64,000 nt of DNA from Gemmatimonadota bacterium (GTDB lineage: Bacteria > Gemmatimonadota > Gemmatimonadetes > Gemmatimonadales > GWC2-71-9): assembly GCA_039591615.1 (NCBI GenBank), contig JBDHDH010000027.1:6585-70584 (forward strand), written 5' to 3'. The translations under genes and the position numbers were made by a program. Below, piece by piece: positions 14,575-16,221 of this stretch. Every line of letters starts with the position of its first letter. The first letter of the stretch is position 1. The notes beneath the pieces are model-generated. The model was not told where the DNA came from, did not search any database, and saw only the letters and a program-made list of their open reading frames with translations.

Positions 14575-16221
14575 TCAGAAGAAAAACCCCCGTCCGAACA
14601 CTACGACCCAGCGACGGCCTTCGAATCCGTCGCCAAAGCGATACGCGACGTCGAGGCGGCCGACGTTTGGACCGGAGGAACGTGTGGCCCCGAACCGGAT
14701 GCCTGCCCCGATGTCGCCCCCAAACCGTGCCGGCTGGTCCGGATACCAGGCTCCGCCATAGTCCACGAAGCCCGCGAACCCCACCCCGAGTAGGTTGAAG
14801 AGCTCGTCGATCACGAACGCCCGGTGCTCGATGGATCCCCACACCGCGCGCTCTCCGGTGAACGCATGAACATCGAACGCTCGCGGCCCGATGCCATGTC
14901 CCAGGTCGATCTCCTGGCCCGGCGGTGTACCCTTGCGGGACATGGCCTCCACGTGGAACACCGTGGCGCTCTTGCGAAGCGCCTGGGACACGAGGGTGAA
15001 ACCCGCCCATACTTGACCTGAGTCGAGCCCGGCGGACGTAAAGAGCCCGTTGGCCTGGGCGGAGAATCGCATCCACTGCTTCCCCAAGATCGCGCCCGTC
15101 TGAAAGAATCCCCGCGGCCCTATGCCCCCGCGGTCATAACCCAAGGCTGTCGGCGCCAGCCACATTCCGACGAGGAGTCGCGTGCTCAGGTCGATATCGA
15201 CATCGCGGTCGAACCCGATGTAGTGGGTGGTGACCTTGTAGCGCGCCCTGTTGAGATCGGCGAAGAAGCCAACCGATCCCGTCACGGTATCGGGGATGGC
15301 GGACAGGCTGTCCGCTTTCGGGAAATACTCCTCCCGCTTGACCTGGCCGGAGATGCTGAGCCGCACGTATCCGCCCGGGCTCGCGACGGGCGCATACGCG
15401 AACGTGCCCCGCTGATAAAAGAAACGCCGGCGAAACACCTGGGAGAGCTGGCCGTTTCGGAACTGCAACATGTCCCGCCGAGCGGCCGCGCCCTGCAGTT
15501 CGAATGCGGCCCGATCCTCGAGGGCGCGGAACGGCCGCGCGAAGGCCCACTGGCCCACCTCACCGTCGCTGAGGTCGTCGTAGAGTCCCGCCACGGAGAG
15601 TCGCGAGCCCAGCGGGCGGTCCCAGCGTCCCAGCAGGGTGACGGCGGTGCGGTCGGGTTCTTTGCGATAGGTGATGCCAGCCCATGCGCCCGAGCCGAGG
15701 ACATTGCGTTCGAGCAAACCCGCCGACCACGAGAACGTCCCGCCGGTGGACCGACCGTTGAGATTGAGGTCGGTGCTCCATCCGTCTCCGGTCCTGAGGT
15801 ACACGGTGACCGAGTCCCCGTGCTGTACCGTGTCGGCAACGACGTCCCGAAAGATCCCCAGCGTTCGGAGATTTCTCAGCGACTCCTCGACCCGTGCCGA
15901 ATCGTAACGATCACCGACCTCGAACAGCAGCTCCCGTTGGATCACGTAGGGCCGCGTGGTGAAATGCAGCGCGTTGGCGATGCGGAAGAACGCGCTGGAA
16001 CGCGCCTCGTCGGGATCAAAAACGTCGTGATTGACGATGACGATGCTGTCGATGACGGGCCCGCTCGTTTTCCCGCCGTCCTGCGCGAGAAGAGGGCAGA
16101 GGGCAGAGGGCAGAAGGCAGAAGGCAGAAAGTAGACGCCTGAAGAGGGCAGAAGGCAGAGGGCAGAGGGCAGAGGGCAGACTCCTGAAGGCAGAGGGCAG
16201 AGGGCAGAGGGCAGAAGGCAT
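14575..16221 (-). CDS. Omp85/BamA-family outer membrane protein (POTRA + surface-antigen beta-barrel)
   Basis: The C-terminal Bac_surface_Ag-type barrel ends ...VVFGRGFFF, and a POTRA-like segment begins [15 protein letters not shown]. The only in-frame ATG giving a signal peptide is at 16221, inside the heptamer array. The track start at 16284 overlaps the upstream four-helix-bundle gene. Confidence 0.8.

Follow-up and report, generated by a model that had tools for sequence, protein, structure and literature searches.

The window analysed here is a stretch of 64,000 nucleotides from contig JBDHDH010000027.1 of a Gemmatimonadota bacterium (assembly GCA_039591615.1), and the locus in question lies on its minus strand, where the open reading frame (ORF) of a gene for an outer-membrane protein of the Omp85 superfamily runs through a tandem array of heptamers. 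The initial annotation of this DNA had proposed that the array encodes the start codon and the signal peptide of the gene and that slippage of the repeat might switch its expression. The array was found in this study to be one arm of a cassette composed of two inverted heptamer arrays (A and B) and a small gene between them. The features of the locus are as follows, from upstream to downstream:

16782-18185, minus strand: glnA (glutamine synthetase; PF00120 with E 2e-135, and PF03951), the upstream neighbour, whose stop codon is the cassette boundary.
16654-16784, minus strand: array B, the 5′ arm of the cassette, 18 heptamer units with the sense sequence GAGGGCA or GAGGGTA (unit parsing).
16229-16581, minus strand: four-helix-bundle (4HB)/S23p gene, for a 23S rRNA intervening sequence (IVS) protein, from ATG 16581 to TAA 16229, with the same orientation as its flanking genes.
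16086-16225, minus strand: array A, the 3′ arm of the cassette, with the sense units CTGCCCT and CTGCCTT in three blocks split by two islands (unit parsing).
16219-16221, minus strand: proposed start codon ATG, a CTG>ATG variant in the first unit of array A; the 4HB stop codon stands 7 nt upstream.
16084-16221, minus strand: array-encoded leader of 46 codons, with a predicted cleavage before Q47 and the last 20 residues resembling a Sec signal (aligned with 17 orthologues on the invariant Q47).
16180-16188, minus strand: island TTCAGGAGT, encoding F-R-S (sequence, unit parsing).
16128-16143, minus strand: island TTCAGGCGTCTACTTT, encoding F-R-R-L-L, the n-region of the signal-like segment (unit parsing).
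14575-16083, minus strand: mature part of the Omp85-superfamily protein, intact, with one POTRA-like domain and a beta-barrel, ending in ...FGRGFFF.

The product of the downstream gene belongs to the Omp85 superfamily (BamA/TamA/TpsB). Its POTRA domain was detected with PF07244 (E 1e-4, 23.2 bits, cutoff 21.3), and an 18-sequence profile matched the POTRA5 region of BamA. The Pfam barrel domain was not detected in the protein by sequence. The AlphaFold model (pLDDT 72) shows a long beta-barrel, made entirely of beta-hairpins from residue 124 on, in keeping with a C-terminal 16-stranded barrel of the Omp85 type, and the top 50 Foldseek matches are to BamA, TamA, CdiB and Toc75 with a probability of 1.0 and a best E of 1e-11, at TM scores of just 0.3-0.46. 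The essential BamA orthologue, a protein of about 800 aa with five POTRA domains, was considered and ruled out, since the window's protein has one POTRA-like domain and ~500 aa in its mature form and matches TIGR03303 (BamA) only partially and below the cutoff (34.6 bits versus 297). A database search returned 775 homologues, and the best-scoring and named ones are from Gemmatimonadota.

Array A was recognized by Tandem Repeats Finder (TRF) as a period-7 array at 16091-16225 with 18.9 copies and 78% matches, and a two-unit 14-mer probe (CTGCCCTCTGCCCT, at most 1 mismatch) matched 24 times in the window versus 0.03 expected. The ATG at 16221-16219 (minus strand) shares the frame of the Omp85-like ORF, and the 45 codons after it are array sequence. 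As had been proposed, this ATG arose from a single-base variant of a repeat unit, namely a C>A change in the CTG of the first unit, which unit parsing identified as the sole point variant other than C>T among the regular units of both arms. The 548-aa form beginning at this codon corresponds to an entry in the protein database (P0001). It had also been stated that this is the only in-frame start that gives the protein a leader. This holds in so far as comparison with 17 orthologues leaves the array as the only available source of a leader, but the enclosing minus-strand ORF, which passes through the array (569 codons, 16284-14575), contains two further in-frame starts past the last in-frame stop (TGA 16299), namely ATG 16284 and GTG 16248. 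The next canonical in-frame start downstream of ATG 16221 is a GTG within the N-terminal POTRA-like domain, in agreement with what had been noted. The description of the 46 codons as pure repeat proved to be incorrect, because two islands interrupt them and the longest perfect tracts of array A are 27, 27, 24 and 21 nt in length (3.0-3.9 units, the value of 3.9 being that of the 27-nt tracts).

Whichever of the three frames is read, a (CTGCCCT)n repeat gives LPSALCP, and its opposite strand gives RAEGRGQ; stops occur on neither strand, so that an open frame across the array is automatic and carries no information. The absence of stops in the repeat is also the reason for a spurious plus-strand ORF of 106 aa at 16031-16351, which has RAEGRGQ repeats through the array and is not a gene. 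The leader owes its only Arg residues to the two non-unit islands. The island TTCAGGAGT has an identity of 17/21 to the second island (TTCAGGCGTCTACTTT) and its flank, suggesting a higher-order duplication inside array A. The DNA of the second island weakly resembles CAGGTGCGTCGT of a relative (L003), and the island TTCAGGCGTCTACTTT/TTCAGGCGTCTAC, with its Arg-Arg at -19/-18, may perhaps be a leftover of the ancestral 5′ end, on slender sequence grounds.

The remark that the last third of the leader looks like a normal signal peptide found support in the comparison with orthologues: its last 20 residues agree with the orthologues in charge, in hydrophobicity and at positions -3/-1. The maximum 12-residue Kyte-Doolittle value is 2.06 (orthologue range 1.3-2.9), the residue at -1 is Ala, that at -3 is Leu, which is also found in 5 orthologues, and the Arg-Arg stands at -19/-18 as it does in the orthologues. 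By this comparison, the leader has features of a putative Sec signal cleaved by signal peptidase I (Arg-Arg, an h-region with the above hydrophobicity and L-L-A before Q), yet it carries 26 extra N-terminal residues. AlphaFold models residues 24-40 as a low-confidence helix, and the conserved AQDG stands directly after the array. Two other possibilities were rejected. On inspection, the SALC and SAFC motifs of the leader do not fit the lipobox of a lipoprotein signal, as their -1 residue is L or F; and internal initiation at the AGGAG in 16180-16188 would find only CTG among the in-frame codons after it, at a spacing of 1 nt.

The initial annotation described array A alone, and its inverted partner and the 4HB gene between the arms were overlooked. 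Array B was found at 16654-16783 (18.6 copies, 93% matches by TRF) and has perfect tracts of up to 34 nt; its unit variants (7/7) all carry the identical C>T change on the sense strand (unit parsing). The two arrays are inverted, lie 430 nt apart and are 86% complementary over 83 nt. The 4HB gene, when read through a frameshift, matches TIGR02436 (E 1e-20, 74 bits, cutoff 24) and PF05635 (E 3e-13, 50 bits, cutoff 33.8). A near-identical copy of the gene in a beach-sand metagenome (X8) carries 10 nt, TGCCTCGCGA, inserted after 16514, and putting them back into the window restores an uninterrupted ORF of ~120 aa. The 4HB gene of the window is therefore a pseudogene with a 10-nt deletion between 16514 and 16515. 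The X8 copy has one base missing at 16564.

The cassette of ~700 bp spans exactly the interval from the stop codon of glnA (TGA, 16784-16782), within which the first unit of array B starts, to the codon that precedes AQDG in the downstream gene. The 4HB ORF is the only one between the arrays, and the neighbours of the cassette are glnA and the Omp85-like gene. With its PF05635/TIGR02436 ORF, its terminal inverted repeats and a predicted long stem around the ORF, the cassette has the composition of an IVS element, but it is located between two protein-coding genes and not in a helix of the 23S rRNA. The cassette contains no reverse transcriptase with a template/variable repeat pair, as would be expected of a diversity-generating retroelement (DGR), and no Rfam family matched in 15900-17000. 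A biofilm metagenome (X7) includes a contig that matches the 3′ part of the 4HB gene (16226-16484) at 99% identity, but nothing in this metagenome matches the 1.5-kb Omp85-like gene, which hints at a cassette in another genomic context or host.

Comparison with relatives showed what stood at this place before the cassette. The 17 orthologues have ordinary signal peptides that end right before the conserved Gln, with (V/A)A followed by QDG in the closest six, and that measure 19-27 aa where the N-terminus is complete. In three relatives with Omp85 orthologues of 75-81% identity (L002, L003 and L004), the gene order is glnA, a non-repetitive spacer of 90-310 nt, the Omp85 gene and ybjQ(-deaminase), and neither an array nor a 4HB gene is present at the glnA-Omp85 interval. 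As the initial annotation had anticipated, such orthologues reveal the ancestral signal peptide: its GTG start lies 19-21 codons ahead of the cleavage site in L001-L004, and a GGGAG Shine-Dalgarno sequence lies ~10 nt upstream of the GTG in L001, L003 and L004. At the position of the ancestral GTG, the window reads CTC TTC, and everything upstream of it is array. Because these cassette-free relatives have a plain spacer and a GTG start, the cassette was inserted in this lineage specifically, where it took the place of the spacer, the ribosome-binding site, the start codon and the h-region.

The mature region, by comparison, is intact, with zero stops or frameshifts in 502 codons. At the columns that are invariant in the 17 other sequences, the window's protein has 0 private substitutions (others 0-8), and within the close clade it has 7 private changes (others 6-14). 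The mature protein shows no sign of relaxed selection, which argues that the array-encoded leader is probably used. Taken with the signal-like end of the leader, the position and frame of the arm and the origin of its ATG, this makes it probable that the gene is still selected and translated through the array. It had been said in advance that an alignment showing a 5′-truncated pseudogene would speak against the proposed start. One half of this applies, since the gene has lost its ancestral 5′ end to a replacement; the other does not, as the 502-aa mature part shows no decay.

We then analyzed whether such arrays are peculiar to this locus. A search of public genomes with the repaired 4HB protein yielded 80 loci in Bacteroidota, Gemmatimonadota, Planctomycetota, Desulfobacterales, Verrucomicrobiota and others. 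The best flanking arrays at these loci have a period of 7, 14 or 21 in 90 of 112 cases. The density of arrays with these periods is 1.94/kb within 400 nt of the 4HB gene versus 0.37/kb further out, a fivefold difference, and 45 of 54 4HB loci have at least one such array, 21 of them on both sides. Alignment-free autocorrelation showed peaks at lags of 7, 14 and 21 near the 4HB gene only. At 49 of 58 loci, the pairing between the flanks of the 4HB gene exceeds that of shuffled controls; in the same 58 loci there is a modest bias towards pairing on the sense over the antisense strand (37:21, p = 0.006), although energies from 300-nt flanks are noisy and supportive at most. The arm units of the Gemmatimonadota cassettes are exactly complementary in 5/5, with four different units among them. 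Two genomes (L125 and L127) carry orthologous cassettes (~1300-1970 in each) at the same site, with an S9-peptidase-like gene on one side and a rhodanese gene on the other, and their arms differ in unit (ATTCTAC versus CTTCAGC) and in number (~13.7 versus ~6 units). As the arms are complementary within each genome though the units of L125 and L127 differ, the two arms of a cassette co-vary. Heptamer arms are a family-wide feature, and the best reading is that the repetitiveness of array A is a property of the cassette family and not an adaptation of the Omp85 gene. In the literature searched, an association of 4HB/S23p genes with heptamer arrays is described for the IVS of Coxiella only.

The sequence of the unit is a different matter from its period. 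More than 120 genomes contain an exact (CTGCCCT)4, among them Cyanobacteria, Planctomycetota, Acidobacteriota, Streptomyces, Bacteroidota, Verrucomicrobiota, Deinococcus and others. Of these occurrences, most are solo arrays, and in only about 4 was a 4HB gene detected together with an inverted pair of arrays; the 4HB proteins of cassettes from other phyla with the window's unit are just 31-36% identical (two matching by tblastn). We therefore rejected the idea that a shared unit means a shared cassette: the unit sequence is not diagnostic, and the period is. The window itself contains a solo heptamer array at 42664-42760, whose units (such as ATTCAGC, CTTCAAC and ATTCTAC) are of the unit family of the L125 and L127 arms. 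This array occupies the interval from the stop of an ORF at 42740-43819 (minus strand) to the start of an ORF at 41882-42673 (minus strand), no 4HB gene is nearby, and it may be a remnant arm.

We suggest, on a modest balance of probability, that an arm of the cassette has been co-opted as the start codon and signal peptide of an Omp85-superfamily gene in a marine Gemmatimonadales bacterium. An IVS-like cassette, made of two inverted arrays of ~18 heptamers around a 4HB/S23p gene that is now decayed, would have come to fill the interval from the glnA stop codon to the signal-peptidase site in this lineage, and would have displaced the ancestral spacer, the Shine-Dalgarno sequence, the GTG start and the h-region of the signal peptide. 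Since (CTGCCCT)n is hydrophobic in every frame (LPSALCP) and free of stops, the arm would be able to take over the job of the signal peptide, which is tolerant in sequence. The CTG>ATG change in the first unit might provide the start, and the two non-unit islands might provide the arginines. The gene would then most likely still be expressed via the 46-aa leader, the last ~20 residues of which would serve as the Sec signal. That the leader is translated and functional, like the mode in which the cassette arrived, is something that we infer as probable.

Several points weigh against this interpretation. There is no purine-rich Shine-Dalgarno sequence upstream of ATG 16221, and a simple scan of 15900-17000 found no sigma-70-like promoter, a scan that is uninformative for Gemmatimonadota; the same holds for a terminator scan at the locus, which found nothing. 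A 46-aa leader with a pre-segment of 26 residues is atypical. A recent insertion alone could account for the intactness of the mature region. Translation from ATG 16221 is read from the sequence and the number of units, and hence the frame, from a short-read assembly through a repeat, the window probably being part of a metagenome assembly. The folding of the RNA is a further objection. The sense RNA of the cassette is predicted to form a nearly continuous stem of ~130 bp (free energy -427 kcal/mol, z -24.9), and this stem pairs array B with the whole leader, the ATG included. In the model, transcripts with both arms would have their initiation blocked and would be a substrate of RNase III. 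With the leader buried in the hairpin, expression would depend on transcription that begins between the two arms, or on the hairpin being unwound or processed. The predicted fold of the antisense strand is weaker (-361 kcal/mol, z -9.7), since the unit variants are all C>U changes, which preserve G·U pairs on the sense strand. This strand asymmetry of the window could be accounted for equally well by a mutational bias towards C>T on the non-template strand.

These objections lead to the strongest of the rival explanations, which we consider unlikely though deserving of attention, that the gene is dead or dying: the cassette would have destroyed its 5′ end with the promoter, Shine-Dalgarno sequence, start and signal peptide, the open frame would be automatic and the ATG fortuitous, and the mature region would not yet have decayed. 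The ancestral start, Shine-Dalgarno sequence and spacer are indeed gone, a (CTGCCCT)n repeat without stops in any frame would stay open whatever its use, no Shine-Dalgarno sequence or promoter was found at the locus, and the leader is locked in a very stable predicted hairpin. Moreover, with many members of the family in Gemmatimonadota and a protein that is not a multi-POTRA BamA, loss of the gene may be tolerable. However, this reading calls for several coincidences: the end of the arm lies at most 2 codons from the signal-peptidase site and in frame with it, for which the chance is 1 in 3; the in-frame ATG comes from the sole transversion in the arms; and Arg-Arg stands at the orthologous position of the n-region. 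The mature region shows no excess of private substitutions, whereas the cassette's own ORF has already suffered its 10-nt deletion. Co-option of the arm is the reading that we prefer.

It had been proposed that the array is open to slipped-strand phase variation, in parallel to the CTCTT repeats of opa. Read as a contingency locus, it would change its number of units by slippage at appreciable frequency and so switch the Omp85-like protein translationally, with the arrangement kept by selection. In Neisseria opa genes, CTCTT pentamers lie in the region coding for the signal peptide and mediate translational phase variation; the tracts are pure and long, and the variation has been shown experimentally. 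The two cases are alike in that a tandem repeat with a unit length not divisible by 3 separates the ATG from the mature part of an outer-membrane protein, encodes the hydrophobic part of its leader and shifts the frame when units change. In the window, the 7-nt units begin at ATG 16221, upstream of almost the whole array, and reach codon 44. The claim that gain or loss of a unit shifts the frame was upheld by computation, as a change of 1 or 2 units in either direction gave truncated products of 63-97 aa and a change of 3 units kept the frame. The target would be a surface-exposed outer-membrane protein according to its Foldseek matches to Omp85 proteins, arms do alter their number of units over evolutionary time (the ~13.7 and ~6 units of L125 and L127), and Coxiella strains carry 2 or 3 heptamers (PMC4990558).

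Nevertheless, we regard a selected switch of this kind as improbable. The perfect tracts of array A, of 21-27 nt (3.0-3.9 units) at 78% purity, are not the long, near-perfect tracts of a contingency locus and differ from the pure, long tracts of opa; the heptanucleotide switch of hmw1A has 13-24 perfect units (PMC8262952). The window's repeat, unlike that of opa, belongs to an inserted cassette as one of its arms and has an inverted counterpart 430 nt upstream, and orthologues show that it replaced a normal signal peptide. The cassette explains the array regardless of the neighbouring genes, without selection on the Omp85 gene, as this type of cassette has such arrays anywhere, and CTGCCCT arrays in other genomes often stop just short of the downstream start codon and not inside the gene. 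To our knowledge, this free-living sediment bacterium has no known need for antigenic switching, which is a weak argument. An on/off switch by slippage is thus geometrically possible, whereas a dedicated phase-variation switch is unsupported; in the best reading, unit changes would switch the gene off as an incidental liability and not as a tuned switch. In two independent sediment metagenomes (X1 and X2), the unitig over the Omp85-like gene ends exactly at 16089, the edge of the array, and the 4HB unitig of X1 has a depth of 3.3 versus 8.3. The end point and the drop in depth may reflect heterogeneity of alleles at the cassette boundary or an artefact of the pipeline. An exact 24-mer used as an anchor for other assemblies of the locus gave 0 matches in genome contigs and 0 in metagenome contigs, and the contig index has no entry for the 548-aa product.

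Finally, it is very improbable that the leader is used but begins within the 3′ end of the 4HB gene, at ATG 16284 or GTG 16248 (as a leader of 55-67 aa), or that the frame or the number of units in the assembly is wrong: both codons are in frame with no stop between and GAGG lies just upstream of ATG 16284, and the short-read unitigs break at the array, so that the path through it depends on the assembler, but this GAGG is 3 nt from the ATG and too close for a typical Shine-Dalgarno sequence, the database form P0001 has 548 aa from ATG 16221, and reads of the usual length exceed the perfect tracts (up to 27 nt in array A and 34 nt in array B), so mis-assembly is not especially likely.

Among known elements, the cassette is comparable to the 23S IVS of Coxiella burnetii, Leptospira and others. 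The C. burnetii IVS includes an S23p ORF, tandem heptamers whose number varies between strains (2 or 3) and a terminal stem that is cut by RNase III (PMC4990558). The cassette likewise has a homologous PF05635/TIGR02436 ORF, often decaying in this class, in the loop of a long terminal stem, and tandem heptamers, variable in number between strains in the IVS, adjoin the ORF. It differs from the IVS in lying between two protein-coding genes instead of in a 23S rRNA helix, in having arms that are ~130-bp arrays of 18 units as against a stem of 28 bp, with a duplex that is predicted only, and in that one arm became coding sequence of the neighbouring gene. The (ATCTTTC)n repeats of hmw1A/hmw2A in Haemophilus influenzae likewise form a tandem array of 7-nt units and control the expression of a surface protein, but they are simple sequence repeats of 13-24 perfect units in the promoter region and act on transcription, whereas the window's array is intragenic, degenerate and one of an inverted pair (PMC8262952). 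The DGR accessory protein Avd shares the four-helix-bundle fold and the family neighbourhood of PF05635 proteins (PMC10053308), but the 700-bp cassette, without reverse transcriptase, template repeat or variable repeat, contains a stand-alone gene between heptamer arrays. The short tandemly repeated repetitive (STRR) sequences of cyanobacteria and the repetitive extragenic palindromes (REP) and bacterial interspersed mosaic elements (BIME) are similar in being intergenic heptamers or palindromes that occupy spacers and are able to fold into RNA hairpins. Many cyanobacteria have (CTGCCCT)n arrays, and a published link between STRR sequences and 4HB genes was not found in the literature searched. 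REP elements, in contrast to the cassette, are not heptamer arrays and have no ORF.

Elsewhere in the window, a gene at 10490-12964 (minus strand) encodes a protein of 824 aa, the C-terminal part of which matches the TolC-type outer-membrane efflux domain PF02321; the N-terminal part of ~590 residues has no Pfam match.

For annotation, the case means that an ORF extension which is derived from a repeat and looks like an artefact probably forms the true 5′ end of the gene for a conserved outer-membrane protein. The locus documents the wholesale replacement of a signal peptide by simple-sequence DNA. It also indicates that a repeat which resembles a phase-variation device can be the by-product of an inserted element, so that the geometry of a repeat alone is insufficient for calling a contingency locus. 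The kinds of element behind the case are known ones, a repeat-encoded leader and an S23p IVS element, the latter here outside rRNA.

The association of heptamer arms with 4HB genes throughout the family is a more interesting lead than this single locus. We speculate, as a possibility that we would sooner doubt than believe, that 4HB/S23p genes with inverted, co-varying heptamer arrays constitute a cross-phylum class of IVS-like cassettes in rRNA and in intergenic spacers, whose arms expand to a selected sequence and can overwrite and functionally replace the ends of host genes. In the present case, the repeat of a selfish element would have become an export signal, with a frameshift-prone leader and a hairpin that would couple expression to the processing of the cassette RNA. 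The 4HB/S23p proteins are among the commonest uncharacterised protein families of bacteria, and their phylum-spanning tie to inverted, co-varying period-7 arrays offers a handle on their biology, for which the processing of RNA hairpins, the maintenance of the arrays and the link to 23S IVS elements and the Avd protein of DGRs are possible leads.

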